Shown here: positions 1 to 61,129 of the stretch, piece after piece
How positions within the stretch are numbered: position 1 is the stretch's first letter
Layout of the letters: every line of letters starts with the position of its first letter
Source of the DNA: Lytechinus pictus
Taxonomy: Eukaryota
DNA: 64,000 bases
NCBI RefSeq assembly: GCF_037042905.1
Contig: NC_087250.1
Coordinates: 22,756,001 to 22,820,000 of the forward strand
Direction: 5' to 3'
Notes under the pieces: model-generated
Seen by the model: only the letters and a program-made list of their open reading frames with translations
What the model was told of the DNA's origin: nothing
Database searches by the model: none
Made by a program: the position numbers and the translations under genes

Positions 1-197
1 TACAATGTACATCATATCTAGAAAATATTTTGAAGAAACGTGTATTTTAGATATTGACGTTGCAGGCTTTCCATAGTTGTGATTGATTGGATCAGTCGTA
101 AGTTTTTGGAAGACAGGGCCTTGGTGATGTAATGATATAACACTACAACCCGTACACATCTTCTATTCTTTGTCCACATTTATTCTTAATTGAACAG

Positions 198-303
198 AAG
201 TCAATAACGAGGACCTCTTTGTTGAACGATTACCGGAATATTTAGTTGGGCTATCGCAAGTAAAAAAGACTGTTCTTACTTATATGATGAAACATATGAA
301 GAG
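198..303 (+). CDS. RhoGAP-domain gene (p190RhoGAP/ARHGAP5/35-like), shared upstream exon; earlier exons lie outside the window
   Basis: aacAG|...AG|GTACGT boundaries; reads (E)VNNEDLFVERLPEYLVGLSQVKKTVLTYMMKHMKR and ends in phase 2, matching the RhoGAP helix that precedes the N-x-M motif. Confidence 0.8.
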
Positions 304-325
304 GTACGTATCTTAGCTTAAAGCG

Positions 326-910
326 TTCACACTTAACATGCTATTGCCCTGGCTGCATTCACACTTTTCATCCATAAATCAGTAACATAATTCATTTGCT
401 GCACTCACACTTGTTTCCCTGTCACGTAATGTATTCAGAAACTGTGTCCAAACTTGTTTTCCCATTACATAACAAATTGAGTAGCTGTGTCTACACTTGT
501 TTTCCTATTACATAACATATACAGTAGGTTTTCCCATTACATAACATATTCAGTAGCTATATCCATACATAATTCTGTATTACAAAAACATATTCAGTAG
601 TTGTGTTTACACTTGTTTTCCTCTTACATGACATATTCAGAAACTGTGTCCACACTTGTTTCACTATGACATAACATATTCCGAAGTAGTGTCCACACAT
701 GTTTTCCTATCACATAACATATTCAGTATTATGTCTACACATATTTTCCCATTACATTACATATTTAGTAGATATGTCCACACTTGTTTCCCTATTAATA
801 TATTTAGAAGCTGTGTCCACACTAGTTTCCCTATTACATAACAGATTCAGTAGTTGTGTCCACACTTGTTTTTTATTACATGACATATTCAGAAACTGTG
901 TCCACACTTC
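326..910. repeat. Minisatellite, about 43-bp unit, about 12 or more copies
   Basis: Repeated cacacttgttttcccattacataacatattcagtagctgtgtc; it produces the spurious ORFs at 656-934. Confidence 0.9.
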
Positions 911-1247
911 CCTTTTTATAATAATATGAAACATCTGTCAGATTCACACATGGTGAAATTTACCACACAAACATTGATGATTTGCACAAGCTCAGTTACA
1001 TTTCTATAGGGTAAGCCCAGCAAATGATTTCTTCCCCCAAGATTGTGGAGATCAAATATGTGATTTTCGGCCCCATTCGATAAAATTTACTATTATGGAA
1101 CATTATTCAATCAATTACCATTGATGAAATGAGTTATAGAGGTAAGTTTTAAGCTTAGCATCCTCAATGATGAACACTATAGTTATTTTTTTTTTTAAAT
1201 AGAAAATGGGACTGAGATGACTAATTTGCTATTTGATTGTATAGATT

Positions 1248-1558
1248 GGCCCGTATTCTGAAGTCGGGTTTAAGTTAAACTCAGGTTTAAAGTTGTGGTT
1301 TAAGTATGGGAAGCCAAAAGTATCAAATTTGTTATTAAGTTGTATGTTTCTTATGTTAACTGTGCTCTGTCCTAATTCATCGATGGTGAAGCCAATAATC
1401 TTTTTATACTTCCTAGACAATTATGAATGATTTGAGAGCCAAATGAGCTGAAGTATGATATCTCTACTGTTAGTGATTTATGTAACAATTGGCTCGCCAT
1501 ACTTAAACCACAACTTTAAACCTGAGTTTAAGTTAAACCCGACTTCAGAATACGGGCC
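1248..1558. mobile_element. MITE with long TIRs (GGCCCGTATTCTGAAGTCGGGTTTAA); related copies at about 7084-7387, 31029-32030 and 41048-41359
   Basis: About 60-bp inverted termini; four copies in the window. Confidence 0.85.
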
Positions 1559-3654
1559 ATAGAATTCAGAAGAAAGAAATAAAGCACCGCTTGCAGCTGA
1601 AAGATAGTTTCACAATCCGCCCTAATGCTTACAAGTATTTTGATTCACGTAATAGAAATGTAGGCTGTGCACAACCTGACCATTAATTGTGGGCGTTTTG
1701 ATGTGTTGCACTGAAAGACTTACAAGGATGGCACTGTAGAAATTCATCAAATTATCCAATTTATTTCCCCTCTGTTTGAATGCCTTGCCCTACATGTATG
1801 TAAAATGGACCAGCCCACCTACCATGCATGCTTGTGCACTATAAAGACACCCACCACCTTCCCCAGTCTATATTTATTGTGTGATCTGCTGTAGGATTTT
1901 ACACGTATGCACCTGCCGTTTCCTTTTATTTTTACCTGAAATACCTGCTTGGCAAATGATTTGTGTCCTTATAAGGAAAATTAGTGATGTAACTAAGCAA
2001 AATATTTAAATATTATTGATAAGTAAGGTCATTGTGAAGGAAGAGTATTGAAACTTAAATAACTGCAATATTTTTTACAATGTATATCTGGTATTCCATT
2101 CTTGAATTAATTTCATTTCTAGAATAATCCTTTTGGTTTTATCTATATTTTCCTTACTTTTTGCTTAGCATAGAATTTTCTCAATCGACTTTTTTCTTAG
2201 TTACTTTCAGAAATATTTTATGATGTTAGTTGGATATTTGATTAAAAAAAAAAAGCTGAAGCTTATTGTTGAAGTATTACTTTGTTAATTAATTACTTTT
2301 TCCTCTCTGAAATGTTAGCAATATTTTATCAGAAATGTTTGATATGAGGAAAAATTGGCTTGTACATTTGTTGTTGATTCTAGTTAGTATTATATATGCA
2401 AATATGTCCTTAGATATGAAAAAAAATATTGAGTATTTGATATGAGGAGAAGATGCTGAAGTGTATTTTCTGATACTACTGTAGTATTACTGCAAACATA
2501 TATCTTTTATCCTTTTATTAACTTTATGAATATTGTAGGGACTGTCCATGTGATATGATTTGAAGAGAAATAACTCACGAGCTGCATGCAAAACTGAATT
2601 GCTTGAAAAAAAATATTTTTGTTGAAATTTGAATGTAAATTGACAGAATAGATTATCAAAAATGTTTATAGCATGAGTAGAATTCACATGGCATGATAAT
2701 TTTTTTTTTAGTATCACTTTTTGGTCCCAAATTTATAGCTTATTGTAAGTAACGGTTTATGTGGTTGAATAGACATCTGGGCTAGGTACACAAAGATTAG
2801 TAATTGATCGTAGGGCTAATCTTATGATTGACTGCATTGATCACTATGTGCAATTGAGGATACAAATCAACTGTAAGATTAAACGCTAAGCTTTGTGTTA
2901 CCTGCCCCAGGTTATGGAACATTCAGTAAATTTACGAGTTTTGACGCTTTGATGATATCCATACTCGCTTAAACTAAAAGGAAACCCAAAGTTTCGGTCA
3001 TGTGATGGATGTGAGTGTGGATTGTTGTATTGTGTCTTGGCATGAAATTTGTGAGGTCAACTACGCTTAATTGTATGTCTTGAAATAGCCTTTAAAAAAT
3101 TTTGTTTGTAAATACTAAAATAATGTACGTGAATTAGAGCATCTGAGATACATGTATATATAGAATGTAAGCCTTCATTTTATTTCCAAATATTGACATT
3201 TATTTACCCAGAGGTCACATTAATTAGTACTGGGCTTGATGAAATTATTTTTAAATTATAATAATATTGATAAGAGACATCTATATATTTCTGCTTATTG
3301 ATATTTAGATAAATCGATTCCTTGCTCACTTTTATTTTGCCTGGCTCCAGTTCGGTTATTAGGTTATGTTTAGATTATATATTTGAACTAGTATTCGAAA
3401 AAAGAAAAAAAAAGAGCAAATTCTAATTCTTTCCATGTTGATTAAAAGACACCATAGAATGATACAAAAGCTCCATGTGCTTATGTTGACAGTTTTTACT
3501 TAGATGTCATTTGCATTGGACACAATGTGGGATACATGTATGATTAATAAGTTGGCTATTCTAAATCACAAATAGATCAAGATATTTACATTTATTAGAC
3601 TCCTTTCTTTACCTTATGACTTTTCATAAAGATGGTGCCTACTCCGACAGTTTA

Positions 3655-4066
3655 ATTTCATAATGCACAATTGTACAGTACTCCATCATGTGTATAATTT
3701 TGACTATTTCACTTTGCCCAAGAGTTAAACTCAATGCCCTCTATATATACTGTCATAATGCACAGGCTTACACCGTTGTGTGTATAATTTGGACTATTCC
3801 ACTTTGCACAATAGTTAAACTTAATGCCCACTACTTAGTGTCATAATGCACAGGCTTACACCATCGTGGGTATAGTTTGGACTATTCCACTTTGCCCAAG
3901 AGTTAAACTCAATGCCCACTACTTACTGTCATAATGCACAAGCTTACACCATCGTGGGTATAGTTTGGACTATTCCACTTTGCCCAAGAGTTAAACTCAA
4001 TGCCCACTACTTACTGTCATAATGCACAAGCTTACACCATTGTGTATAATTTGGACTATTCCACTA
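3655..4066. repeat. Tandem repeat, 88-bp unit, 5 copies, running into the exon A acceptor
   Basis: cataatgcac starts at 3659, 3754, 3842, 3930 and 4018. Confidence 0.92.
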
Positions 4067-4071
4067 TATAG

Positions 4072-4252
4072 GATAACGCAGTGCTCCGAGGAGAATCTCA
4101 TGACCGCCGAAAATCTGTCCATATGCTGGTGGCCTTCCATGCTGCACCCGCAAAGCAAATCATTTGACGACCTCGCAAACGAAGCACTTCTCGCGGCAGT
4201 CTTCAAGCTCATAGTAGAACACTCAGAAACGCTCTTTGATTTTTTCACGTGA
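4072..4252 (+). CDS. RhoGAP C-terminal exon, variant A
   Basis: tatAG acceptor, phase 2; (R)ITQCSEENLMTAENLSICWWPSMLHPQSKSFDDLANEALLAAVFKLIVEHSETLFDFFT*. Resembles the p190 RhoGAP motif NLMT..NLSICFWP. Confidence 0.85.
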
Positions 4253-7200
4253 GCACGGGTGCCCCATAGACTTCACGCACTGAACCACTGATGTTCAGTT
4301 TAAAAGTATAGCCAGCCTTAATAAACTGCGAGATTATACTATTATATATAGCAAGGTATTTCCAGCGTCTTATCCGCGCCTATATGCAGCGGAACAGACT
4401 GGTGTATTTCTACTTTATTTTCTACACTGTATTAAAATAAGGCACCCACAGTTATATTTGTTATATATCGAGCACTGGAGGAGAGGATATTTGTTATTGT
4501 TTTAAAATGAATTCTGCCCTCGCTTGGTGATGGAAAGAAGATAACCCTCGTTTCCTGATTACGGGGATGTAGCACTCTTGAATGATGTCAGTTGGTGGAA
4601 CGGGAGACTCGGTGATCATTCTGTCTGGAAGAAGATCTTCAGTGATTTATCTATCGGCTGAGGGAATGACCATACCGGAAATCGCTCTGGCGCATCGATG
4701 AGGGGATGATTCTAGTTGGTTCAAAGAAGCAGATATATGTCATTTTTTAATCATTAACCGGAGCTGTCAATGTGGATAGATGTATTGATGCTGTAGCGTT
4801 TGAATGACAGAATCTCTTTGAACTGAATCACTTATTTGATTTTTAATACAACGGCATCATTTATGGATTCCAGTCATCTCTAACTGTCGCAAGGATTAGT
4901 GCATTCAGTTAGCAGCACTCATATGCACTCATGGTTATCAATCATTACCACCATGCGATCTTGATTACCCACAATGCATCACTGATTACCCATGATGCAT
5001 CACTGACTAACCCTGTCACAGGGCCATGTTCACTCAACACCAGACACCTCAGAAAACATTGAGACTGTTTAGTCACTGTCCTAGCAAGATTCCTGGGGAG
5101 GGATTCACAAAGATTTACGTTAACAAAAAAATACTTTTAAGTTACCAGTAATGTGTTGTAGATAACGCAACACCGGAATGGTCAGATCATTGGATGTTCT
5201 TAACTGGACATTAATCAATGAGATGGCATGTTGAATTTGATGTGCGTGTTGGAGCATGATTTTTCCAGAGACCTAAATCTTTCTGAGACACCTTCCAGAT
5301 CAAGAAAATCTTACTATTATATTATGAAATGATATTATTATTATTATTAATTTGATTTAAAATGAAATGAGTGACAGTGAGAAACTATAGTATGTTATCA
5401 AATGGGGCCTAGACACTTGTCCACTTACGTAACGTCATGATTATAATTTCTGAAATAGTCTTGGCTTGGTCAAGATTTGTTTTACGATGGGCAATGAAGA
5501 GCGATGACTTTTTACATTCACTTTTGAACTTTCTATCATCTTTTTAGCCTATGTAATTTCAACATTAGCAGGGTTGTCTATATAGTAAAGAACTAGTATT
5601 GACCTTTTTTCTTGATGGCAAAAATGAGTAAACTTTTAAACCTTTTTCGTTATTCGGATTTAAAATCATGAATTGAAATAGGGCCCCATGTTGAATGTAT
5701 TGTCAGTTAAGTTTATTTCAAATTGTTATATTTTTCACTTTCTGTGAAAAAGATGGAACCTACATTGTCATAAAGGTACTGCTAAAAACAGATCAAATCT
5801 GTTTTGAAATTATATGGAGGTATAATTTGTTGAGTAATCATTGAGTGTTTATTCAGCCGCTGCCTTTTTTAATTGGTTCAAGGTATTATATTGTTTTCAA
5901 ACTTGTTTATATGTAGGGGTAATACATGCCTAAACCTTAGGACGATGGTAAATCCAGATCTATATATTATGCTTCAGGCGTTATTAAGAAAACATGTAAA
6001 GTAAAGCCTGATCATGAGTATCTTGAGTAGTTTTCAACGTCATGGTGATGAGTATTAAATCTTGCTTTTGAAGAAATTTGATATTCTATACATTCCCAGT
6101 TATGTAGGATTTTTTTTTTTACAGTGATTGAGCTGTATACATGTTTTTATTGCTCATATCTCTTGGTAGAGTCATAGCAATGGCTTAGTGTATTTTTTTA
6201 ATGAAAAATAGAGGTCCAATGAAGGATCCTTGTGGCACACCACTTTTTGCTTCAAATGCCTACTTGTAAGCCTCATATATACTGGTTATTGTTTCTGCCA
6301 GGTCTTGTGTTTCTCACATTTCTTTGAAGGAAAAAAGTGATACATGCTATGTTAGATTTGGTGGCATTTGTCAATTTTATAGTTTTCCAAATCAAGGTAT
6401 TATTTTCTTTCTTAGCCTCGATTCAATCGTAATTGAACTCATATAATTGTATATGGATTATTAATGCTTATTCGATTTTTTGTACCATCCATGGCTTAGC
6501 AATTCAATTTTCACCTGTTCCAAACAAATTTCACTATGTTTAAATTCTTACATGTTTTCCACTCATTACTTTAGAGAAGTGGTTATTCAACATCATTTGT
6601 ATATTAGTTACCAAAGTTTAATTTGAAAATCATTCATTATCTTACCATACATTGTATTTCTCATTCATTTAACTCTCATTATTCATCCATACCCCTTCAT
6701 TACACTTGGAAATATCAAAAGCTTTTCCCCATTTCTGTACTCTACTTCATCTTATACCCTGGGAAAGTTTGCTTTAGAGTTAAAAAGACTTGATGGGCCG
6801 GTAACGTAAAGCTTCGCGATTGATCGTAGGGCTAATTTCTATGATTGATCATACACAATAGTCAATGCAATCAATCTTAGAAATTAATCGCTAAGCTGTA
6901 TTTTACAGGGGCCCAGATGTGCAATCCTTTCCTGTTTTTCTCAAGCTGTTTTAAACAATTTGGCTTCCATCTCAGCAGTACACACCAAAATACCCCTATG
7001 AATAAAATGGAATCATCCAACTTGCTTCTCTCTGTTATTCGCAAAGTCATTGGGTGATAGATAACACATACATGTAAAGTCACTGAACCGTATTCTGAAC
7101 TCGGGTTTCAATTAGACCCTGGTCTTAAGTTGTGGTTTTACTATGGAGAGCCAATTGGGGCACAAATCCCTAACAGTAAAAATCCACTTTATTAACTCAT

Positions 7201-9054
7201 TTGACACTCAAATTGTTCATAGTTGTCTGGGGTAATAACTCAATTATTTGTCTTCATTATATAAGCAAAAGGAAACTAAATAGTAAATATGAGAAATATA
7301 TAGTATAAACAGAATTTTTGGCTACCCATAATTTTAGCACAGAGTTAGACTGGGGTCTAAGTGAAACCTGACTTCAGAATATGGTCCCTAGTCAAAAGTT
7401 GCTGGGTCATGTTGCAAAGTGTTTAGTGACTGATCATATGTTAAGAATTTACGATTAATTATACATTGTGTTCTTGCGTTCAGTTGGTAAGCTTTGTATG
7501 TGTGGTTTCTGAAAAGACAAAAATCGTACGGTTGTATGTTAATTTCATCAGCAGAAGTCAGAAATTTACAAGCATACATGTAGGTGAGCATTGTTTTAAT
7601 TGCAGGTGCCAATTTTGGCTATACATGTAACTGAATAATTATGATAATAGAGGTATACAGTATTAACAACACTTTCAAATTTCTGAGAATTTGTGAAGAT
7701 TTATTTTCTTTTATACACTTGAAGTTGTTTGCAAAGTCTTTTAAGAAGATACTCTCTCTCTCTGTGTTACCTGTACCACATATGTGTGAGACCATCACCA
7801 TTTTTTTACTGCATACCGAACATCAAAATCTATTAAAATGTAATCCATGCTTCAAGCAGTTAGAGGAAAAAATGTAATTAACATGCATTTTCCTCTTTTC
7901 ATTTTGATATAAAAAGCATATAAAATCATTTACTCCTCTGAAACAGGCAGTGTGATCATATTGGTCATTTCATTTTCATTAATAAATAATTTGATGATAC
8001 TGATAATGCTCATAATGATGACAAAGATAATGGTATTGATTATTATATTTATAATGATACATACAGTATTATAAGGATAAAGATAGTGATAATGAGAATG
8101 ATAAGAGTAATGATGATATTAATAATATCATCATCATTATTAATGATAATTATTGATGATGATGATGATATTGTAGTAAAAATGCAAATATACATTTATT
8201 ATGCAGAATTATCAAGGCACTAATTTTCTATATTACCCTGGCTTTACAGCTATATGAAGGCTATTAGTAGCAAAGTTAATGGGTTGATAGAGAACATGGA
8301 TTGATTATCTATTCTGTGCATTTGAAGGATAGTATAGCCATTGTTCAAACAGATGATGATTTTCTGTTTACATGTAGATGATCCTAATAGAACAGAAGGG
8401 CATTCCACGAAACAAACAGTTTGCAATTTTCACTGGCAATGTCATTCTGAGCCAATCAGGTGCTGGGATTTCAGTAGCTTAGAACAAATAATCAGTGAAA
8501 GCCACAACCTTTTGTCTATTGAAATGCTCCTGTTGTGTATATGATCTGGGCTCCGTAACACAAAGGTTTACGATGAGACGCAAATATGAAAGAGCCGCAC
8601 TGATTGGTTCCTGGTCAGAATTTTAAACCAAATGTGCGTGTAACGTTGATATTGAATCGTCAGTTCATTTAGCGATTGTTCGCTAATCTTTGTGTTACGG
8701 AGCACAGAAATCATATGGATAGCCTCTGAATAGAAGCTGGTTGGTGTACATGGGTACTACTAAAACCTGAATATATGGATTTGATTTAAAAGGTACACGT
8801 AATAATGCATGTGGGTCTAACCTAAAGCCACTGCGCATCTTACAATTGGTCTGCTCTGATTTTGGAAGAAAATGTAGTAAAATTTGATGTGAATATTGAG
8901 ATATGGAAATATCTTACTGTGCAAGGTTCTAAATCATGGTATGAACACTTGTATGTTCAAATTTGTTACTATGCTACCTTAACCATCCTTAGAATAAAAG
9001 CGATCTAATTTTAATGTCATCATAGCAGGAACTAATACAAAGGTTAGTGATTAA

Positions 9055-9425
9055 AGGTATTGTTTAACTTTGTGAGCAGCCGATTTAAAAAATTCTCAAA
9101 CCAAGATGAAACATGTGTACAAGTGCATGTATTAGAACTAATAAACCCTGAAAACAACCATTATTGAGAATGAAAAGCTAAAACTACAAGGCAAACCCCG
9201 ATTTTTTAAATAGGCGTCTTATAGACGCATGAATAGTACACATAAGTGTATGGGATGAAATTAAGATGGTGTTTTCGGTCACTTTATATATTTTTCAATT
9301 TAAATAATTATTTTCGAACGCAATTTTTTCTGGGCTTCATTTTTGTAACATATCACAGACACAGGTGACAAGTGTGACCTTCTAGCTCAGATTTTTAAAA
9401 GTCAAACCAATGTTAACCAATCACT
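9055..9425. mobile_element. Kolobok-like non-autonomous element nested in a small MITE
   Basis: TTAA on both sides, AG..CT termini, imperfect 18-bp TIR. Confidence 0.65.
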
Positions 9426-9770
9426 TTAATCTTATGCTTGACTTTCACGATTAATCGTAAGAAAATGTTCCTTTGAATTCTCAGCTTTGTGTTATTGGCC
9501 CCTGGCCTTCAAAATAAAGGCCTGCAATCAGCCAAAATTGTTATATTTGTATTTTACAATTAATTTGAACCTGAAATAAAAAGAGATCACTCACATTTTC
9601 AGAAAATAAGCAAAATGCGATTTGTTTCAAAATCAGATCATGGATCAGTCCTAAGTTGTGCGGTGGCCTTAAGGTTCATACGCAAGCAAAAGCCTGAAAA
9701 CTGCAAAAAAATCTGCTGGCATGGCAGGCAAACCTGTGTGATAACGTGGATCGTTCCATTATTCCTGTAG

Positions 9771-9942
9771 GGTGACAGGTCACCATGATGGAAACAAAAT
9801 GAAGGCAGAGAACGTTGCTATATGCTGGTGTCCATCCATCCTACAAGTCCCCCCGGAGGACTTCCATACAAAGTGGATGATCCTGACACGAATCCTCCAA
9901 CTGATGATTGAGAACGAGGATGTCTTTGATATCGCCGAGTAA
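9771..9942 (+). CDS. RhoGAP C-terminal exon, variant B
   Basis: ttcctgtAG acceptor, phase 2; (R)VTGHHDGNKMKAENVAICWCPSILQVPPEDFHTKWMILTRILQLMIENEDVFDIAE*. Confidence 0.8.
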
Positions 9943-10135
9943 TTCAATCCCTCCGGAGGACTTCCATACAAAGTGGATGATCCTGACACGAATCCTCCAA
10001 CTGATGATTGAGAACGAGGATATCTTTGATATCGCCGAGTAATTCTGTCCCTCCGGAGGACTTCCATACAAAGTTGATGATCCTGACACGAATCCTCCAA
10101 CTGATGATTGAGAACGATATCGCCGAGTAATTCTG
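9849..10135. repeat. Tandem triplication (100-bp period) of the 3' end of RhoGAP exon B, including its stop codon
   Basis: ggaggacttccatacaaag at 9855, 9955 and 10055. Confidence 0.93.
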
Positions 10136-10495
10136 CTAAATTAGGTAGTCTGTAATAGGCGCGTGGACTGCTGCGCTACTTTTGATAAGTAGAATCCTGT
10201 ATGCTTTTTGATACGGTTGTAAAAAAAACCCATCTCATTCATAGTTTTATAGTCTTAGCATTGTAAAATTTCTTTTATTTTCATTGTAAGCGGTCTGGGC
10301 CTAATGGGAAAAGAACTGTATAAGTAATAAGTATCATTATTATTATTATTACCATAAAATAAAAGATCGTGAAGATCGAATACTCCCATAGATGATAGAG
10401 AATAAAGGAAGTGTCTGTGATATCGCTGGTTAGTTGTGTTAATACAGGGTCTTCAGTAGGCTTGTGTAGCAAGGTGTTGTTCTTGATGTACTTAA

Positions 10496-10775
10496 AGGCC
10501 TGGTCCCACTGGCCGACGGACACAACGTATTCATAACGGATACATCGGTCCAAGCAAAATTTTTGGGTGGCTCCATCCGTTTTCATCCGCTCCAGACAAT
10601 GGACAAAATGGGCGAACTATGAAATCACAGTGGACGGATGCTCGATGGATATAGAGCGTATGAAACACGTATGCAAGGAGTACACAATGGATACAAAACG
10701 TTTTCCAACGGATGGCAAAATTCTTATCCGTTTTATCATCCTCTCTGCATCCGTAAGTGCAGTGGGACCAAGCCT
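10496..10775. mobile_element. PIF/Harbinger-like MITE
   Basis: TIR aggcctggtcccactg / cagtgggaccaagcct with TAA target duplication. Confidence 0.75.
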
Positions 10776-10789
10776 TAAACATTTTGATA

Positions 10790-11770
10790 ATATGACTTTA
10801 GATTGTATTTTCAATTATTCAAAGTCTATTATCCTGACATGAATACTCAGACTGATGTTTGAGATGAGGATCTTTGACATCAATGATTAGTTCTGATAAA
10901 TTGGCTGGTGATCTGTTACAGAGGAGTCAGTCTTTACATGTATTCATTCTTATTTTATAGTTTTTGATTGTATTGTCAGTTATACAAAATAGATGATCCT
11001 TATACAGATACTGGAACTGATGCTGAAGAAAGAGAAGGGTAGGCCTATCTTTAATAACACTGATTAATTCTGATAAAATGGCTGGTGGTCTAAAATAGGC
11101 TTGTGTACAGAGGAGTGAGTCTTAACATGCAGACATTATTATACAGTTTTAGATCGTATTGTCAATTATACAAAATGGAGCCTTACACAGATAATGGAAC
11201 TGGTGTTTAAGAAAGAGAAGAGTATCTTTAATATCACTGATTAATTTTGATAAAATGGTTGGCGGCTTGTGATAAGCTTGTATTCCAAGGTGTTTATAGC
11301 CTTGATATATAGGATTTTTAATACAATTATGAATTATGCAAAATGGAAAATACATAAATACCCAGAATACACTAAGCGAAGGTAGAGAAAGATGAGAGTA
11401 TCTTTAATAACACTGATTGATTCTGATAAGATAAGATGATGGTGGGCAATTCCATAAAATATGCACGTCCGACCCCAAGTACGTGAGACCTTCATGGCAT
11501 TTTCTGTCTCTGATTTCTGGTTCTTTTGACAGTCTGTAATGCTCTCAAATGATCATGACTTGGTCAGTTTATAAAGTGGAGTAAAACTTGGGGGTCGGTT
11601 TAGTATTTTACAGAATTGCCCTGGTGTATAATGGGCTTGTGTTCCAAAGTGTTAGTCTTGATTTATGTACCATTTAATACAATTATGAATTATACAAAAT
11701 GGAAAATAATTACCAAGAATACACCCAGTGAAGGAAGAGAAAGAGGAGAATGTCTTTAGCATCACTGACT
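10790..11770. repeat. Degenerate tandem repeats of about 180-200 bp
   Basis: Recurring blocks such as tatctttaataacactgattaattctgataaa and aattatacaaaatgga. Confidence 0.65.
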
Positions 11771-12196
11771 GATATTGTTGCTAGGTTACACTTAATGAGG
11801 TATTTGGAACCTTGATTATCTGTAATAGACCCTGTGGAACTGTTTCATAAAACTTGTTATAATAGCAAACATGCAGCAACTGTTTAAAGCTACTGAAATC
11901 ATTCAATCTGATTGGTTGATAGTAAACTTTTTATCAATTTTTACAATGGCAATTCTCTGTGAACCCCACCCCCCTGAATTAGAATGAATGCTCCTTATTG
12001 CAAAACAAAAAGAGGAGTGCCAAAATGACGAAGTAAAGTAAGTATGAGTCTGGCTATGTAAATCAATTTGAATATTATCAGTGGACCCATTAATTAAGAA
12101 TTGAGTTTTATTTATGCTTAACTGTAGCAGTAATCATGAATGTATAGTGTCCTGTGAAAAAACATGCATTTGATTATTGGGCTCATTTTCAATGCA

Positions 12197-12427
12197 CAGT
12201 TGTACTTTAAAGTTAGTGAACCCCGCTACAAAATGCACTCCTTCATGCTGAGTGTTGTGTGTAGACATGACTACAATGTTCTGTATTAAAGCCCAGAGAA
12301 ACAAACTTTATTGAATGTCATATTTTTTCACCTAACTTCACAATTAATTTTCTAAAACATGGCAGAATGTGGACACTTTAAATATGTTCATTTTCTGGTA
12401 GGGTTCCCTAACTTTTGAGCACCACTG
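12197..12427. mobile_element. Tc1/mariner-like MITE; partial related copy at about 34677-34860
   Basis: CAGT...ACTG termini with an imperfect TIR of about 27 bp; TA at the right flank. Confidence 0.6.
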
Positions 12428-13295
12428 TATATGCTGTAGCATAATTTGGTTGTGAAATCTGTATGTTATGTTCTCAGAGCAGGCTTTCAAACCACAATGG
12501 GTGATTTCAAGTTCAGTGTTTACCTTTTGGTGTTGGTGTTAGGTTAATTTTTACACGATTATAACACCAAACCTAAAATGAAGATGGTCCCGAAAAGTCA
12601 CTCACTAGTTGTTGAGATGTCAATAATGTGATCTGGATCAGTTTTACAAACTCTGAATAAGTTTTGGAGCTAGGGGAAGCAATCCAAATTTCAACACCAA
12701 CACCAAGGCCAACACCAGACTTGAAACCACAATCAGGTTGTGGATTGTCATACTTGAAACAATTGTTTCATGTAATGCTGTGTATCCTTTCAAAAGGAGA
12801 TTATTGTCTGTGTTTATGGGGAACTCGACACTGTTATGATAAAAATCACCCAGACGAGAACAAGATTTATGACAAGGAGATGTTATCTTATGCCACTGAA
12901 AAGGCCTTATAGTAAGGTCATCATCTCAGTTTGCCTGGCCTGACAGGTGCCCAAGGCTAAAGCAGGCTTGGCTGAACAGTTTTTCAGTGGTACGCGTTTG
13001 CTGTTCCCCAAAAGATGTCTCTTATACAGGCATCTTCTGTGCTTTTCATAAAGTCTGGTGTCGGCAAATGATAATCCACTCCCAAAGATGAAGGAAGCTG
13101 ACGCCCATCAGACTTTTGATAGCGTATCGTCCTTTTTGTCTTTAAGGGGAATTGCCCTTCCTGCCCTTTCAATTCACTGTTCGTAGTAACTCACTTTCAT
13201 CTGACTCTTCATTCAGAACACTCTTTAATCAATATTAATTCCCTAATCACACTAGGCTCTATTAGTAGCCAGGCCATCACTCATATTACATTTAT

Positions 13296-13825
13296 AATTA
13301 TATCCTACTTAGAGTAAATCCTGTATAGTGATTGGTTCAAGTAGCATCATGTGACCTAATATATTTCAACTATGATGTTGCGTGACGTCAGACCTCGATA
13401 TATTTTTGGATATACCAATATTATGACGTCATTATTTCACAAAACTGGATATCTCGGCGCACCGGCTTGCGCGCTCTCTCTCCCGGGCGCGCAAGTCCAG
13501 CGCGATGCGTCAGCGCAGACACTAATCTGCGTTCCGCTGAGCGCGGTGGCTCGGAGAAAAGTAGGTAATTCAACGCAAGTAACAGGACTTTGCATGCTCA
13601 GCGCATAGATTTTGGTTATAAATTATTAAAAGTAGGATATAAAACAAATATATCAGGCGTTTCATTCGAAAGCATAGTGGGAATTATTAATCCTCGGTTG
13701 GACTGGCAAAACTACTATATTTCCCTCGGGGCTTCGCCCCTCGGGGAAAAATAGTAATTGCCAGACCAACCTCGGATAAATAATTCCACTATACTTTCTC
13801 AAAGCCTGATATATTTGTTTATTAT
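13296..13825. mobile_element. Unclassified element with a 12-bp sub-terminal inverted repeat and a terminal palindrome of about 180 bp
   Basis: tatatcctactt (13299) / aagtaggatata (13630); arms 13642-13730 and 13738-13820 around GCTTCGC; CpG-rich core in an AT-rich intron. Confidence 0.65.
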
Positions 13826-14679
13826 CTTTAAGTTATTTGTAGATATGAAAAGCACACACAGCTGAAGCTAGATGGCATTCTCAAAAAATAATTTCATATG
13901 ATTATTATAGATAATGATAATATGCAACATATATATAGTGCTTAATACACATGTTTATGAATATTGCATATTATTATTTTGTCTTTTGCATGGTCATTAT
14001 GATCTGCCACTTTAACATTCAAGGAATTTCTTTCTATAGGTACCCATTTCTTTCAAATATAATTTGATTTCATACCAGTGGCCTTTGTAATGGTATTTGA
14101 AGATTATAATGACATCACCCCTGTGATTTATTCTAATGCCAACACGTTTTCTTGATTTTATTTATAAAAAAGGGCTATTGAAAATTGTAGATATTTGGTA
14201 GCTCAGTTAAAAGTGACACTGCTGGCCATGATGTAACCACGGCCCTTATTGGTTGTTACTGAAGGATGTCCCATAATGGTTGGGGATAGGTTTGATGGTT
14301 TCAAGTTCGGTGATGCCCTCTTGGTGTTGGTGTCAGGCTGATTCTGCACCAGCACAGCACCGAATGGCAATCAAGATTGTGATTCCAGCACCAACACCGA
14401 ACCGTTAACTCACATCAGGTATTGAAGCTGGGAAAGACAGTCTAAAATGTGCTTCAAACACCAACACCAAACTTTAAGCTATGGAAGTTGAACCGTTAAC
14501 TCGCATTAGGTGTTGGAGCTGGGATAGGCAATCTAAATTGTGCTTCAAACACCAACACCAAACTTTAAGCTATGGAAGACATTCTAAATTGTGCTTCCAA
14601 CACCAACATGAAACTTCCAATCACCCTGTAAGTAAGATCACCTTTGCTTATTTGGATCGTTCCGCTGTTCCTAACGTAG

Positions 14680-14857
14680 GGTGACTGATCATCACGAAGG
14701 AAACAAAATGACCGCAGAGAATCTCTCTATATGCTGGTGCCCATCTCTTCTACAGCTCTCCATGGAGGACATGCGTACCAAGTTGATGCCTCTAACCCGT
14801 ATTCTGAGCCTGTTAGTTATTAATGAAGAGACTATTGCGGATATTATAGGTTGGTAA
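14680..14857 (+). CDS. RhoGAP C-terminal exon, variant C
   Basis: ttcctaacgtAG acceptor, phase 2; (R)VTDHHEGNKMTAENLSICWCPSLLQLSMEDMRTKLMPLTRILSLLVINEETIADIIGW*. Confidence 0.8.
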
Positions 14858-16879
14858 CACCATTGTTTCTCTCTATGTGCCAGGATCTAGCCAGGGTCCC
14901 GTTGCTTAAAAGTTACCATTATGGTAACTTTGCCATCCAATGGTAGTTACCATCTGACGGCAAAGATATCCATAATGGTAACTATTCTGCTGCTGGACCT
15001 GGGCCAGGTTGGACACAAGACCATTTAGGGGCCATACTGTTTTTGCAAAATAGTTGGCCTTTAAAAGTTATTGTGTCTAATATAGCTGGATCCGTGCCTG
15101 CTATGGACCGTCCATTCTTTGCTGAAAATTAAAAGGAGATTGTGTGTTTTGATGTGGAATTTAACACCATATGAATATACATTAATACTCATAGTAGCGG
15201 ACATTTTGTAATGCCACTGGTAATTGCACTGTGGTGAAGTCATTATCTCACTTTCTCTGACCCGATGGTTGTCTGAGGCTAAGCAGGCTTGGCCGAAGAT
15301 TTTTTTAGTGGTACACCAAGTTTGCTGTCCCCCAAAGATATCTGTGTTACAGGTATTTCCAATGCTTTTCACAAAGTCTGGGGTCAGCAAATGATAATCC
15401 ATTCCTCCTGAACGCTAATGCCCATCTGACTTTAATGATCCATTTTGTTCCAACTTTAACTTTTCTTCTCTTGAAGAAAATACGAACCTATTGAATTATG
15501 AATTTTATCTTTCCGTTTTCAGTTTCTAGCAGGGTTATTGAACAGGGTTTATATTGATGAAAAAAATTTGATAAATCAATTTGCATTATTTTGTGGTGAA
15601 AGAAACTGGATGGGAGTTAAAAACTTGGAGTTAAAAAAATTGGATCATCCAGCAGATAAGGGGCCTGTTTCATAAAGACCTACTACAATTGTAACTGGGC
15701 CATTGTTGTAACTTCCGTGGAAACCCTTGATTGTGATTGGCTGCTGAGCCCTGTTACCATGGTAATTACCATAATGGCAAAGTTACCATATAGTTGTTAT
15801 TCTTTATGAAATTCCTGTGATACAAAGGTTCCCATGACACAAAGGTTAGCGATTAATCGTACGCTTGATTTTCACAATTAATTGTACATTGTAGTCAATG
15901 CAATCAATCATTAAAAAGATGTTCTATGATGATTGCTAAGCTTTGTGTTACAGGCCCGAGGTATTGGTCTGGTATGTGAGTTTTCATCCCACCGCTGCCA
16001 CCAAAACTATTTTTTTTTTTCACTTGTAACTTTTCATGAAATGCCCCCCCATAGCTATATATGAGGAGCATCCCAATCCCGAAATGACAAAGTAAAGTGA
16101 CATTTAAAGAAAAAAAGATACTTTGGGCATGCCCTAATCAACCACTAGCCATATGAGTATAGGCATGTAGAGAGTCTAATGGTTGTTCATGTAAAATGTA
16201 CTAAATGTAAAACTTTTGAACTGAAATATACTGCATCCTACAGAGCTATCGCTGTGCGAAGAACAAATTCAGAGTTTGCAAGAGAAACCTTTCACTGGTG
16301 TAATTTCACCCGGGATTCGGATAAAATGTCTATCAAGTCATATCATGAAACCCCCTCCCTCCCCTGCCATTGTTTATGGCAATTATCATCCAACTTTGGC
16401 TCATTTACAATTTGCTGTATTCTTGTCGGTTCCAATGCATGTGAATGAAGCCTACAGTTATTAATTACCTCGCTTTGCTGTTCATACACACAAAAAGCTG
16501 CCAAATTGAAAATATATGGAAATGTAGCTTAGTAACTTTGCATTCATAGAAGAGCTAAGTATAAGATTGTGTAGATTGGGATTATATTGATTTATAGTTG
16601 ATAAATGTGACTAAGCAATTATGTTTGTATGCCAGGTAATTTATTTCAGTACATTTGTAGCTTTTCTAAAGACTCTGAAGGTTTGAAAGTAAGGTCAGAA
16701 AGGAAGAAAATAGAATTTCTTTCAGAACATTGCCTACTCCAATTTTGATGTTTCTGTTTATTTTACATGTATTTCATATTTGTTTTTGCCCTGTAGCACT
16801 GTAATTGTTATCAGTCGCAATGAGATGATACATCCAGCTCATTTTTGCTTGTGCATTTTTTCCAGACTATTAACAGACC

Positions 16880-17034
16880 AGGGCCCCGTTGCATAAAAGT
16901 TACTATTACGGTAATGTTGCCATCCAATGGTAACTACCATGGTAACGCTGTGCCAATCAAAATCAAGGATTTCATGACAGATACCATTGGATGACAAAGT
17001 TACCATAATGTTAACTTTTATGCAACGGTGCCCT
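16880..17034. mobile_element. Palindromic CWG-flanked MITE (PIF/Harbinger-like); related copies at about 14892-15000, 42576-42716 and 44348-44508
   Basis: gggccccgttgcataaaagtta...taacttttatgcaacggtgccc inverted termini. Confidence 0.8.
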
Positions 17035-19224
17035 GGGGTGTTTCACAAGCATAAATGCACCGCTAGTTAAACAGTTTGGGAAAAATTTTTAAAGATCCAA
17101 ACTGACCCTTGCTCGATATAGATGCTCGTTCAAGATAATGAATTCATACAATGATTACATTGTGAATATGCTCATTCTGAGAAGTGTTAAACGACTTACA
17201 ACTGGATTGTGTGTCTATATGTATGTATTCTAAACCAATGTACTTATCAATTCAATAATTCAGTATACCATGATGTTCTTTCAAAAAGAAAACAAAAATT
17301 ATTTTCAATATCTTTTGTCAAACATATGCCAGGTTTGTAAGACGTAATTGAATTCATTCATTTCAATCAAATTGTGTGAATTATGAGTACCTTTTTTTTT
17401 AAATCTATGTCAATGCATTGCCTTTCAGCTAATTTTGTCTTTTCTTTGATCACCATGTATGTTGACTTTATCAATAGCTTTCAGCCTTGGAAAACACATT
17501 TTCTGTCTTCAAGATGATTTTCATGCTTATAGGAAAAGAAATCTTGAACTTGGCACCCCTGACATAGCGACATTAAGAAGTGTCTTGATGTTTCCCCACA
17601 ATTTTAAAGTGACTCTTCATTCATGCCAATAGCGCCATCTAAGGACTAGATTTAGGATGTGTGCCATGATAGGTACCCATAATGCAATACTTTCCCCCTT
17701 TTCATGATCATTCATCTTCAAATTATTTCACAAAGTTGATTAAAAAAAAAGATCAGTGATGCAAGGTATATTTATAAAAGGAATAATGGTGCATAATGGG
17801 TCTGTCTTGGCACTTTCCAAACCTCAACTATAGTTGGCGCTATTCAATATGTGTCTGTTTAAATTAAAAATGTAAGAGTAACCACTACCACAAAAATAAA
17901 AGTTGAATAAAATCACATCTGAAATGTTTGTAATATTACTTGGTTCAGGATAACACTGGTGTTAATATTCTAAACATTTTAGCTGAAGTCATCAATCAAA
18001 GATGCTATATCGGTAGTCATAAATGTATATGTTTTCTTTCATATATCAATTCTGGTTGCTGACATATTATAATTGATTGACTAAAAAAAATCACTCTTAC
18101 CATCTTGATTTTTCTTTTATTACCCTACCCATATCACTTCTGTTTTGAAATACTTTGAAAATATATCTTTGTTTTTTTTTTCTTTCAATTTTCATGTGTT
18201 CAAAATCTTGTCCTATAAATCCAAGTTATTGAAAGGGTATGTAACATTGTGGAAAATGATTCTTCATTGCAGAGCTTTCTGAGTTATGTGTCATGTTTGT
18301 TTTCATTTGCTTTGAAGAGTGAAGAAATTGCGGGAAATGTGTTTATGTTTAAGATTTTGTTTATTCCAACCATAAAGTGATTATGTTATAGACCGTTTTG
18401 AAAAAAAAAAGGATGAGTGCCCAACATTTTGTGGTCATCCCCAAATCTAGCTCTATACATACATACATACTTGTAGGTGTGCAGTCCTATAATACAGTGC
18501 TTATGTAGAAACAAATTTGATATTATGTTTGAATCTGGTACAAGTCTATTATTCTAAGGCTCAAAATGCTTTCTTTTGTAAAATATGATTGTTTTTGTAA
18601 CCCATTACTGAGAGAAATTTATTTTATGTGAACTTGCAAGTTATACTGATGCTCTATGTTATCGCATGACAGAAACTGCAATGTCACTTTCCTATTTGGT
18701 TGTTTTGTTTGCTTGAAATATATTTTCATACTCTGAACTTAAAGTAACTAATTCAAGGGGGGCGGGTTGGCTTGGCGGGACCATTTGTGGTAAGGATTGT
18801 TTGATGGTCAACAAGGGTTTATGTAAAATTGTACCTTTGGGATTTTTATTAATTCCGACGAGATTGAGATGAATATATACATGTGGGGTTACCAATCCTG
18901 TGTGTATACTTTATGATTTATGTCTATTTTTAATATAACCAGTTGCGAGATTTATGATATATATTAACCAATACCGGATGTTCTAATAGTAAAATGTCTC
19001 TTTCCTCATTAAATCTCAAAGGTATGTATTATGTGAATATCAATCTATTTCAAGATGTAAGTTACCCTACCGAGGAGTGTTTTCACTTTGTATGAAAACA
19101 CATTAAAATGTGCATTTACATGTAAGGTAAAATGTAATGTACATGTAATTATGGTGTAAGGGAATGTATTGAATATATATGATTCGTATGTAAGAAACTT
19201 ATAATGAAACTTTAAAAAAGAAGA

Positions 19225-19230
19225 AATAAA
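19225..19230 (+). terminator. Putative distal polyadenylation signal of the RhoGAP gene
   Basis: AATAAA at the end of a long UTR-like AT-rich stretch, followed by GT-rich downstream sequence. Confidence 0.5.
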
Positions 19231-19249
19231 AATGTGTACCGAGTATTTC

Positions 19250-19590
19250 TTTAGTTGTGTGAATAATTTGTTATATATTTATTTCATCTTGTGTTGTTTG
19301 TGAGTGTGATTTATACACCAATGTATCCCGTGTGTCTCTGTAGTTCACAATTGTATGAATAATTTTGAACATCCGTTTTGTGTTGTTGGTTTAGTGTGAA
19401 TTTATACAGCGTTGTATCATGTGTGTTTTCTTATTTGTTCACTGTTGTGTGAATATCTGTTAAATGCTGATGTTGGTTGCAAGTGTGAACTTATACAGCA
19501 AAGTATACTGTGCATTTCTTCTTTTGTTCACTGTTGTGTTGAATATTTTGTGTGTGTTATTGTTCGGTTGTGAGTGAATTTTTACAGCAT
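19250..19590. repeat. Degenerate GT-rich tandem repeat just downstream of the RhoGAP poly(A) signal
   Basis: About 4 units containing ttgtgtgaata...gtgtga(a)tttatacagc. Confidence 0.6.
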
Positions 19591-20153
19591 AAATTGCACT
19601 CGTCACATGGATGAATCCGACTCGATATAATGTGAATTTGTATGGATCAGCCTCGACAGTTCTCTAAAGTGCTTTGATGTTTAATACTACAAAGACCGAT
19701 GCTTCCCACGGAATCCTCCTTGCAGAAATGTATGTGAGATGTATTGCATGTGTGTATAAAGGGGTGCGCAGATGATAAAGGAGTTTTTGCTCCGCGACCT
19801 TTAGTGTTCATGAACAGAGGAAATGCATTGCCCTTCATAACAAAGTCGTCTTTGTAAAAAATTGATGAATCTGGACGAACGACATGTCTGTAATTTCTCG
19901 TCAGCTCTGAAACTTACACAAAACTTGTTTTGGTTCACCAATTTTTGACAAAGCCCTCTCAGCTGTTCTTTGTCATTGACAGGTATTTTCAATACATTTA
20001 CTGTGTTCTTGAACCCTCTGTTCATCGCGGACCAAAAACTCACTAACAGGAAGACCAAACAACCTCAAAGTGACCACAAACTTGCTTAGTCGTTCGTGAT
20101 GGATAATTTTCACTTATAAATGAACAAAGATAACCATGTTTTCTTTTCATTCT

Positions 20154-25285: not shown

Positions 25286-28200
25286 ATCTACTACTACTAC
25301 TACATCTACTACCACTACTACTACTACATGTACTGCTAGTACTACTACTACTACTGCTGCTGCTACTACTGCTACTGCTGCTGCTACTACTACTACTACT
25401 ACTACAACTATCACTACTACTACGACTACAACTTCTACTGCGACTACTACTGCTACCACCACCATTACTACTCCTACTACTACTACTACTACTACTACTG
25501 CTGCTGCTACTACTACTTCTACTACTACTACTACTACTTCTACTACTACTACTACTACTACCACCACTACTACCACTACTACTGCTACTGCTACCACTAC
25601 TACCACTACCACTACTACTCCTAAACCACCAATACTATAACTACCCCAACACCACCATCAGCACCACTAATGTTATTACTACTACTTCATACTATTAATA
25701 CTTCTTCTACATGCATATATCCATATTGAGGGGATGAAAACAATGATCATTTCATGAACAGCGCCAAACACAGAGATCCACTTACATCATACATCTTGGT
25801 TGCGTTATTGAACATCAGCTGCACATCATCAAAGAACTGATGATACCTAGAGTAATCCTCGCTCTCACATTTTGTCTTCATCACCTGAAGATCCATTGGA
25901 TTCTTGATCAACTTCTTGTAGTTTGGAACCTGGAAAAAAAAAACAGAAAATAGGTTGGTCCGATTCAGATTTTTCACAATTTCAATCAGAATATGGGACT
26001 TTTGATTATCTACTTCGCTCATTTTTTTTTTTTTTTTTTTTTTTTTTGGGGGGGGGGGGGGGCAGGTGTAGTCTAGAACCTCAAAACACAGAAAAATGGG
26101 TTTCAATATAGTGATGTTAAATTTTTTACACTCCTGGGGGCCGTTTCATAAAGCTGTTCGTAAGAACGACTGGTGATCCTTTCTTATGGTAAATAATATG
26201 TTCATTGGTGATTACTTAGCGCATGAAAAATGTTCACCAGTCGTTCTTAAAGTCGCTCTTAACTTACAAAGAGCTTTATGAAATACCCACCCGGTTCAAA
26301 TATATATTTTTTTAATTTCCTTGTAGTTTGGAACCTGACAATGGGTTGGTTGGATTAAGTGTTTCAAAACAGTGAAATTGTAATTTTCACAATCCCAATC
26401 CAAAAATAAGATTTTTGATCATTTTCTTGTAGCTGGGGAACCTGTAAACACACAAGATATGGGTTGCTTAGATTTAATATTTCAAAATAGTGAAATAGGT
26501 ACTGTTATTTTCTGTTTATAGGTTAAAATCAAAAAGGAAAATCTCTTTTTGGTCCTTTACTTTTAATGTGAAAATTTATTCAATTTTAATACCTTGGCAA
26601 AACAGAATTCATGCTTTTGGAGTGTACATTTTCTCTGACACAGGAATTTTCATTTTAGATCATGTTTGAAATGGAAAGGACCCCAAACAAACTCAACACA
26701 AGGTAAACTAACCTCAGATTTAGTAGGTGGTTGTCTGAGTGGTTTGCTGTCTCGGTATTTTAACATCTTGGATATCACACCATCAGCTGCCTGTAAAGAA
26801 TAATTGAATATAAGAATCCTTACTTTCTTCATATTGGCAACATTAACTTTCACTATTGCATCTTCCCATAGCATAAATGTAAAAATTCAGTTTCAGTTTG
26901 GTGTCTTTTTTTCATATCTCACAAAATATTCAATACAATGTAACGTCCATCAAAAGACAATAAATCATTAATGATAAAGTAATACAATACATCACAATAA
27001 TTCAATATAAATAAGACAATGGTTATAAAATTGAACGTACCAGATCAGGGACAGATATAACAATAAGATTAGGATATGAAGGGCAAACTATTAAAAAGCT
27101 AATTTATAGTTTCCCTATTAAAAAATTATAATTATAATCCTGACGTTTTCAAATTTCTCTGAATTACTTTAAATCTCAAACTGAATTACTTTAAAGTCTC
27201 AGACCTCATTTTGACGCACGGCTATGCGGTTACACAATCATGCAACATTATATAAGTGTGTCAGTCTCAAAATTGTTCAAAAGTGGGATTTCATGTACAA
27301 AGTAAATATAAAATGTGTTTTCAGCTACAATTCATAAATTTTACTTTTATTGACAAGCAGTAATTTGATGCAATTATAACATTGCTGACAAAATTTGTCA
27401 AGAAAACAATAACAATAAAAAGAACAAATACATAGGAAATTAAAAAAAAATATCATACTAAAGAAATTGATTTTGGTACCAGAATTTGTTTTCATTTACA
27501 ATTGTTTGGGGTGCTGTAAAATTGTATTTAAACAAAAAATTAGCATTCCAGGTATTTATTTAGTGGATTGGAGCAAAAAGCATGATTTCATGAATGAATT
27601 AGCATAATTAATTCATACAAACTAACATATGTCAATTCAGCATACCTCAATGTCTAGTTTAGGTAATCGCTTTGGAGGAGGGGCCCTCGGAGCTGGCTTC
27701 TTTTTAGCCTGCTGTCGGGTCCGACCTCTCGTGGATTTAGTCTGCGGCGCCCTTTTTCTTTCCCTCAGTCGCGCCCTCGTCTTGCGCAATCCTGCTTTGA
27801 CCCCTCGCAATGACCTCTTAAAGTTTGTATCATCGTCGTCGGATTCATCCTCAGACTCGTACTCCTCAGAATCTTCCTCTTCTTCTTCTTCCGAGCTCTC
27901 GGATTCGATCTCGGCGTAATTTCGGTTCCTCACGGCTCGTACTGTGCTAGGCTGTCGAGATATGATGAAAAATGGGATGGAATGTTAGAAGTTGATTAAA
28001 AAATAATCAAAGTTCTTGAATTAATTCCATGAACTTGTAATTCAACAACTGGTTGTGGGGAGTGCCTGAAACGCAGACCTGCCAACCTCTGGGAATGAAA
28101 AACTGTATTCTGTGATTTAAAAAACTGTATTTTTCCCCCAAAAAGTGTATTTCATAATAAAATGCGTGGCGCACTCGCTCATCACGGCGCTCAAGCTGCA

Positions 28201-56577: not shown

Positions 56578-56712
56578 CTGATAGATAGAGAATGGGCGTG
56601 GTCAAGGAATACAATATAAATAAATGGTCTGGGGAGGATTTCATCAACATTCTGGTCCCATAAAGCTGTCAGATCGGACAACTTTTCTTGATTTTGATTG
56701 GATGATAAGCCA

Positions 56713-57520
<808 letters not shown>

Positions 57521-60556: not shown

Positions 60557-61129
60557 CATAACCTTGTTCTCTGTTACTACTCCCTGGGAGGGGAAATAAG
60601 GTTGGCAATGTTTGACTTACTTTCTCTTGTTCTTGGGGACCCTTGGGGACAAATGATTGTTTTATGCTGTCAGTTTCCATTACAGCTATTTCATCATAAA
60701 ACTTGGATCTTAAAGGGGTGGTCCAGGCCAGGTTTAATTTATATCCACTAGATAGACAAAAACCTCTTTCCTATACTATATTTTTTTAAAGAAATAAGAG
60801 GAACAGTTATTTTTTATTGAATTTTCAATTTTGCCAAAATCATATTCTGGCACGAGTCTGTACGATCCCAGAATGCAATGCGCAGCTTTTTCTGTGACGT
60901 AGCATCTCCACTTTGGCTTCGCTGGCTGCTGCTACGAGCGCGAGCGAGCTAGCTAGCTAGCTAGCTATCGCTCGCACGTATGCGTATAGATCATCAGCGC
61001 CGGCCGCATACATACGGTATTAATTAGCTACATGTAGTTTTCGACTTGCATTGATTGCGGTCACCGTCGACCCTGTAATTCACAATTTGTTTGTTTCTCG
61101 CCGTTTATTTCATAATTTGAACAATTAAT

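Follow-up and report, generated by a model that had tools for sequence, protein, structure and literature searches.

Among the main restraints on RhoA in animal cells is p190RhoGAP, and Rho-driven cytokinesis and morphogenesis have a classic model in the embryos of sea urchins. In vertebrates there are two paralogues of the whole gene, p190RhoGAP-A (ARHGAP35) and p190RhoGAP-B (ARHGAP5), in which GTPase-like, FF and pseudo-GTPase domains are followed by a C-terminal RhoGAP domain with an arginine finger. We analysed 64,000 nucleotides of the urchin Lytechinus pictus (assembly GCF_037042905.1, contig NC_087250.1, positions 22,756,001 to 22,820,000, forward strand), here called the window, which contains the 3' end of a single p190RhoGAP gene (ARHGAP35/ARHGAP5-like) with this domain order. 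Whereas the vertebrates have duplicated the whole gene, in the urchin it is only the last exon of a single gene that is present in three versions. The penultimate exon is termed E0 and the three last exons A, B and C; negative positions lie upstream of the window. B and C are most probably tandem duplicates of A that act as alternative last exons of this one gene. The abstracts of three papers (PMC9741552, PMC8373072, PMC9013439) portray tandem exon duplication with alternative splicing as infrequent, for the most part ancient, and important for function.

The p190RhoGAP gene and the anatomy of its 3' end

The 60 kb upstream of the window was taken and the open frames of its first 20 kb were scanned with Pfam. 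One RhoGAP exon came from that scan: its frame matched PF00620 with an E value of 1.1e-16 (upstream locus L002:8300-8590), and it carries the arginine finger in the motif GIYRVSG. This exon lies at -1655..-1440, 1.4-1.7 kb 5' of the window. It is 100% identical to L. pictus isoforms named 'rho GTPase-activating protein 35/5-like', and its identity is 96% in Lytechinus variegatus, 88% in Strongylocentrotus purpuratus and 79% in Diadema setosum. The RefSeq proteins with 100% identity contain the Pfam domains PF00071, PF16512, PF23083, PF19518 and PF00620. Isoform X1 (1903 residues) matched solved structures with its N-terminal GTPase domain (6d4g, 3c5h), its middle part (5u4u, 5u4v) and its GAP domain (5irc, 3fk2, 2ee4). 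Because these matches to p190 structures run along its length, the gene is the urchin p190RhoGAP; the features of the family, a RhoGAP domain with an arginine finger and GTP-binding, FF and pseudo-GTPase domains ahead of this C-terminal GAP domain, were all found.

From about residue 1047 onward the exons were traced on the DNA by tblastn, with three full isoforms against 124 kb (the window and the 60 kb 5' of it). Of the coding exons, the last four lie at -2796, -1655 and 198 (E0), followed by A, B or C. Each GAP exon upstream of the last exon was placed once in the 124 kb, and the last exon alone was placed three times. In the window, tblastn found no second copy of E0 better than E=0.59. 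Since all upstream GAP exons are present as single copies, whole-gene duplicates are excluded. An earlier note, made from the letters of the window alone, had proposed that no copy of the upstream exon lies between A, B and C and that the arginine finger is encoded further upstream; the tblastn searches with E0 and the three isoforms and the exon at -1655..-1440 bear out both proposals.

Further upstream (loci L003-L007, window -55255 to -16615) very short exons of 18-43 codons follow one another in a long series, and some of them are alike: one query stretch, for example, matched at -19758, -18171 and -16833. This series probably underlies the 15 annotated isoforms.

The features of the locus are collected in Table 1. 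After two leading bases E0 is translated to VNNEDLFVERLPEYLVGLSQVKKTVLTYMMKHMK and ends with two bases of a split codon; it corresponds to about residues 1809-1843 of isoform X1 with 100% identity. A, B and C are each preceded by AG, are in the same phase, supply the third base of the split codon (AG/G) and have their own stop. Their open frames comprise 56-59 codons, and the Pfam RhoGAP model (PF00620, 148 positions) was matched at positions 121-147 by A, 124-147 by B and 123-145 by C. The three are thus tandem, same-phase homologous exons with functional-looking acceptors, as is characteristic of duplicated alternative last exons. When the sequence was re-read, the four exons, their AG acceptors, intact frames and stops were found where they had been reported, apart from the coding end of B, which had been given as 9943 and is 9942. 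The introns flanking A, B and C could not be aligned except for about 25 nt before each acceptor, and the motif that the three share there may be a conserved splicing element.

Table 1. Positions of features in the window (slashes mark exon borders)
Feature	Position	Strand	Description and basis
Penultimate exon E0	198..303	+	constitutive, GAP domain; AG at 196-197, donor AG/GTACGT
Acceptor-proximal intron motif, A copy	4047..4071	+	TTGGA-3 bases-TTCC...TAG; alignment of three flanks
Last exon A	4072..4252	+	canonical p190 type, GAP helices F-G; stop TGA 4250-4252
3' untranslated region of the A isoform	4253..6597, at least	+	spliced contig; sense-only depth falling from ~16 to ~2 across 4137-6721
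Acceptor-proximal intron motif, B copy	9746..9770	+	TTGGA-3 bases-TTCC...TAG; alignment of three flanks
Last exon B	9771..9942	+	alternative, diverged duplicate; stop TAA 9940-9942
Three tandem 100-bp copies of the exon B 3' half	9848..10147	+	100%, 96%, 76%; repeat family D5, blastn, tblastn
Two AATAAA	10358..10406	+	hexamers at 10358 and 10401; 415-460 nt 3' of the B stop
Decayed partial copies of the exon B 3' half	10817..11784	+	blastn 76% at 10817-10893, 67% at 10982-11070; families D7, D9
Acceptor-proximal intron motif, C copy	14652..14679	+	TTGGA-3 bases-TTCC...TAG; alignment of three flanks
Last exon C	14680..14857	+	alternative, diverged duplicate; stop TAA 14855-14857
Bromodomain open frame	25747-26145	-	E=9e-15; convergent neighbour gene downstream of p190RhoGAP
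PHD finger open frame	29105-29509	-	E=1.5e-12; convergent neighbour gene downstream of p190RhoGAP
Long open frame	49555-50907	-	450 codons, no Pfam match
Long open frame	56624-57769	+	381 codons, no Pfam match
THAP-domain open frame	61105-61581	-	E=2.7e-6; Pfam

Several repeats lie close to these exons. A 43-bp tandem array of about 11 copies (388-909) occupies the intron directly 3' of E0. Next to exon A, a tandem repeat of 88-90 bp with four to five copies (3679-4044) immediately precedes the exon, and each of its copies contains TTGGACTATTCCAC, a motif that is also found at the true A acceptor. Around B, the first of the three 100-bp copies is the coding end of the exon and the other two lie within the presumed 3' untranslated region; with the decayed copies, which continue for about 1.7 kb beyond them, they form an exon-derived minisatellite in the presumed 3' untranslated region and its flank. 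Directly 3' of exon C is the first copy of a 63-nt repeat with an internal palindrome (GTTACCATTATGGTAAC, 14891-14953), the second copy of which is at 16878-16940; RNA reads join opposite strands at 14945-14953.

Origin and conservation of exons B and C

The homology of the three exons was evident within the window, where tblastn gave E=2e-9 for A and C and E=2e-6 for A and B. When the whole 811-Mb genome was searched with the exon C peptide, B was found at 3.3e-16 and A at 1.7e-4, with nothing else at E<=1. The exon B peptide found nothing but this locus and one weak match (E=2.8) on another contig. By a count made by eye, B and C are identical at 32 of their first 51 residues, which align without gaps, and A and C at 16 of their first 26; a MAFFT alignment gives 34 of 56 for B and C. 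The homology had been reported before with slightly higher identities, 33/50 for B and C and 17/26 for A and C; the relationship stands and the numbers are a little lower.

The best structural match of exon A was human p190A (5irc, 32.2 bits), where it covers about the last 46 residues of the GAP domain, and both proteins have NLMT-x-ENLSIC-x-WP. Exon C matched p190B best (19.8 bits). For exon B, beta2-chimaerin came first with 17.5 bits (E=0.03) and p190B reached 14.3 bits. The likeness of B to the C-terminus of the chimaerin RhoGAP domain includes IENEDV near the end, at a marginal score, and a C-ending protein fragment (P0045) was once named 'beta-chimaerin' by NCBI. Where the urchin exons B and C have the p190-type ICW-x-PS, however, chimaerin has IVFGPT. 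The p190-type signature SICW/AICW-x-PS is kept in A, B and C, and for this reason B and C are taken to descend from A and not from another RhoGAP gene. We rejected an origin of B and C from a chimaerin gene on account of this signature and of the lack of any other matching source in the genome; the resemblance of B to chimaerin is read as chance or convergence rather than descent. Judged by these comparisons, A is the ancestral, canonical p190 exon and B and C are its diverged duplicates. A was probably duplicated in tandem in an echinoid ancestor, together with about 25 nt of the preceding intron, and the copy was duplicated again before Lytechinus and Strongylocentrotus split, giving B and C, both of which retained acceptor, phase, reading frame and a stop.

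The comparison with other urchins gave the following identities. For exon A, L. pictus shares 59/59 residues with L. variegatus, 55/59 with S. purpuratus and 43/58 with Diadema. For exon B the values are 50/56, 41/56 and 29/53 in the same order, and exon C of L. pictus is identical to that of S. purpuratus at 42/58. Across the genera the orthologues of B and C are therefore 72-73% identical and those of A 93%. Compared with A or with the constitutive GAP exons, B and C evolve at two to three times the rate. The paralogues B and C agree at 34/56 within L. pictus and at 33-37 of 56-57 residues across species. As the orthologues are closer to each other than the paralogues, both duplications predate the split of Lytechinus and Strongylocentrotus, and the split between A and the B type is older than the divergence of Diadema.

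Selection on B and C was estimated by the Nei-Gojobori method over 51 ungapped codons. The nonsynonymous distance (dN) was 0.27 and the synonymous distance (dS) 1.36, which is saturated, and the ratio dN/dS was 0.20; the differences at codon positions 1, 2 and 3 numbered 13, 9 and 26. B and C are thus conserved under purifying selection. A dN/dS near 1, or absence of the exons from relatives, had been named beforehand as speaking against functional exons. What we found between B and C was the ratio of 0.20, and orthologous B and C protein ends are present in other urchins.

These ends are found in existing RefSeq models. The C-termini of all proteins returned by the searches were read, and among the 41 full-length models in this set 35 end in A, four in B and two in C. 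The B-ending models are L. pictus X2 (P0025), which terminates in exactly exon B, L. variegatus X1 and X13, and S. purpuratus XP_030848927. The C-ending models are an earlier L. pictus protein, XP_054757541.1 (P0038), with 56/58 identity to C, and S. purpuratus X1 (P0043), with 42/58. Two protein fragments also carry such ends, B in P0011 (Strongylocentrotus-like) and C in P0045. In the models of L. pictus, L. variegatus and S. purpuratus the same upstream exons are joined to A, B or C, and in Diadema setosum XP_072163201 (P0020) an A exon is followed by a B-like exon in one frame. The current annotation of L. pictus has 15 models, 14 with A and one with B. The B and C endings are therefore already annotated as computed models in three urchin species and are less new than was first assumed.

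Our literature searches found no published description of alternative last exons in the p190 GAP domain. A search with a B+C profile against 1.84 billion representatives, one per cluster, found no B- or C-type ends outside echinoids. It gave four matches, of which the Diadema model P0020 and the fragment P0011 are real; P0047 was dismissed as a repeat protein and P0048 as an A-like end. Word-based searches, in libraries that likewise hold one representative per cluster, returned urchin proteins alone.

Transcript evidence and competing explanations

Three stranded RNA runs of raw reads, labelled as this species, and one run of contigs were aligned to positions 1-15500. The joint from 303 to 4072 (GT..AG), which connects E0 with A, was found in all three raw-read runs with 22, 23 and 8 reads, in the orientation that fits a plus-strand RNA. 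A contig of run X1 joins 196-301 to 4070-6597, and the 3' untranslated region of the A isoform is for this reason at least 2.3 kb long. Poly(A)-signal hexamers follow A at 4320, 4431 and 6054. The earlier note had asked for three junctions. This first one is thus confirmed; those from 303 to 9771 and from 303 to 14680 were not among the 15 of 210 joints listed, where joints resting on raw reads alone had at least 48 reads each and less-used joints would not show.

Over B and the next 400 nt (bin 9824-10340) the sense-only depth was 13.9, 21.1 and 8.3 in the three runs. In the unique bins on its two sides it was 2.9, 3.0 and 2.5 upstream and 3.9, 4.6 and 0.3 downstream (10858-11374). This profile looks like that of a terminal exon. 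The pair of AATAAA hexamers downstream of B is likely its poly(A) region. From the RefSeq models together with the strand-specific coverage over B we infer that B and C are used in L. pictus tissues. For C, an ATTAAA is found at 15128; the depth in the bin of this exon comes mainly from repeats, on both strands, and is uninformative for C. No places where many molecules end were listed in the RNA alignment.

Between the AATAAA pair and the decayed copies of exon B lies an interspersed repeat of about 290 bp (10490-10780), for which a first look at the genome gave 990 candidates, with copies 88-93% alike. Its RNA depth is biased to the sense strand (about 132 against 15), and it is the cause of the very high sense depth at 10341-10857.

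Several observations weigh against the use of B and C as alternative last exons. Besides the two junctions that were not listed, reads over E0 (depth 18, 32 and 6 at position 214) are about as many as those of the joint from E0 to A, so that A is dominant and little room is left for B and C in these samples. The depth over B may be inflated, as the bin holds three copies of the 100-bp repeat, and at 9852 every read has the base that copies 2 and 3 carry. The RefSeq models are computational, and the C isoform is absent from the 15 current L. pictus models. B differs from its L. variegatus counterpart at 6 of 56 residues, mostly in the tail, and A at none of 59, which points to weak recent constraint on the B tail.

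We nevertheless regard B and C as alternative last exons. The E0 donor would usually be joined to A and the transcript would end at the A poly(A) sites. When the A acceptor and poly(A) sites are skipped, the E0 donor could reach B or C. Every isoform would keep the arginine finger and helices A-E, and the F-G unit and the 3' untranslated region would differ. The choice may be set by competition of A splicing and polyadenylation with the downstream acceptors. An exclusive exon cluster controlled by RNA structure was considered and rejected. The 45 nt before each acceptor were paired with the 3.7-kb intron after E0 by RNAduplex, and no docking/selector pairing was found in this comparison: the best energies were -23.5 to -24.9 kcal/mol against shuffled means of -23.7 to -28.9, no better than the shuffles, and the three selectors paired at different sites.

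The explanation that survives best besides this one, although we consider it unlikely, holds that B and C are relic duplicates without use in protein and that splicing to them is rare noise caught by gene prediction. The RNA reads fit it, since the joints to A (22, 23 and 8 reads) explain about all of the E0 depth (18, 32 and 6), and so does the ending of 35 of the 41 models in A. The two to three times faster change of B and C and the position of the 3' half of exon B in an unstable tandem repeat also speak for it. Against it, the frames are intact and free of indels for more than 50 codons across three to four genera, and dN/dS between B and C is 0.20 at saturated dS. Strongylocentrotus has retained orthologues of B and C, and Diadema a B-like exon, and the acceptor-proximal motif has been conserved where the remaining introns have become unalignable.

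Very unlikely, in our judgement, is a serial use of the exons, in which A would be spliced on to B or C so that the A stop is removed and a second F-G unit is added to a complete GAP domain. The 15 of 210 joints listed include none that leads from about 4249 to 9771 or to 14680, the depth in the A 3' untranslated region at 4623 (25, 31 and 5) is about equal to that of E0, and in the other three species not one of the 41 full-length models has this form. The idea arises from a G before every stop, which creates a GT in the phase of the E0 donor in A (AC/GTGAGC, 4249-4250), B (GA/GTAATT, 9939-9940) and C (TG/GTAACA, 14854-14855), though a G before TAA or TGA is possible by chance. It would cover B with reads without lowering the count of the joint from E0 to A, and in the Diadema setosum model P0020 (...FNFT/VTEY...) A is joined to the B-like exon exactly at this GT.

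It is barely credible that B and C are parts of some other transcription unit, be it a truncated RhoGAP gene of its own or a non-coding RNA of the 3' flank: despite patchy sense reads between the A 3' untranslated region and B (e.g. 8-19 reads at 8425-8726) and a B depth above the A depth in run X21, the window contains neither a further RhoGAP exon nor a start exon nor another E0, the frame ahead of B is open for 9 codons (65 residues in all), the models of three species join B and C to E0, and the gene that follows, from about 25.7 kb, lies on the minus strand and is convergent.

The window as a whole is AT-rich, eukaryotic DNA, and no Rfam families were found in 1-20000. Downstream of p190RhoGAP the open frames of the neighbour gene are followed by a THAP-domain frame and two long frames (Table 1). 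Around 56.6-57.8 kb both strands have several open frames that overlap, a pattern suggestive of low-complexity sequence or a repeat.

Possible consequences for the GAP domain and relation to known systems

Structural work on p50RhoGAP has located the contact to the GTPase in the helix-F stretch around a conserved Asn. The urchin exons have this stretch in common, as the motif N-x-M-x-A-E-N-L/V-x-I-C-W-x-P-S is found in A, B and C. Within it, one or two positions just before the Asn differ: there is a Leu in A and a Lys in B and C, and a Thr in A and C and a Lys in B. Most of the differences in the alignment fall in the F-G loop, in helix G and in the tail. In the modelling paper PMC12240320, the helix-F stretch around the conserved Asn is likewise the GTPase-contacting part, with the Asn equated with Asn194 of p50RhoGAP.

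The earlier note had combined one gene, a common arginine finger and three alternative last exons with swapped GTPase-binding surfaces. The first part agrees with the RefSeq models, the exon anatomy and the conservation. The swapped surfaces, and with them a 'specificity switch', are not supported, as the GTPase-contacting helix-F motif is the very part that A, B and C have in common. Because this stretch is common to the exons, a wholesale swap of the binding face is less likely than an effect of helix G and the tail on regulation, stability or partner binding, or than modestly tuned GTPase contacts. The predicted structure of a B-type GAP fragment (P0011, from an alignment of 11 rows) was too poor for use, with a mean predicted local distance difference test score (pLDDT) of 46, a predicted template modelling score (pTM) of 0.34 and the last-exon part below 50 in pLDDT.

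A more far-reaching proposal is put forward tentatively and is rather doubtful. The F-G cassette might have been kept in echinoids since before the split of Diadema and the camarodonts, with NLM changed to NKM in B and C (the p190-specific Leu before the contact Asn to the generic Lys) and with a new helix G and tail in these two. The isoforms might then differ in Rho/Rac preference or in GAP regulation by stage or tissue, and A might serve as a terminal exon or, via the in-phase GT, as an internal one.

As the isoforms are already computed RefSeq models, the finding refines the annotation rather than revealing a new mechanism. If B and C are used in particular stages or tissues, the gene would offer a natural experiment, in which three versions of the last two helices are placed on an otherwise identical protein of 1,900 residues. 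The role of helices F-G and the C-terminal tail in substrate choice or regulation would then be directly testable.

Taken together, the urchin locus resembles mutually exclusive exons, in which homologous, tandem, same-phase exons are used one per transcript and the isoforms are identical save for the homologous segment. In contrast to internal mutually exclusive clusters, each urchin exon is a last exon that brings its own stop and a 3' untranslated region (presumed for B and C), and the choice among them would couple splicing with polyadenylation. The last exons of urchin p190 are a conserved, echinoid-wide case of tandem exon duplication feeding alternative splicing, a well-known kind of event.

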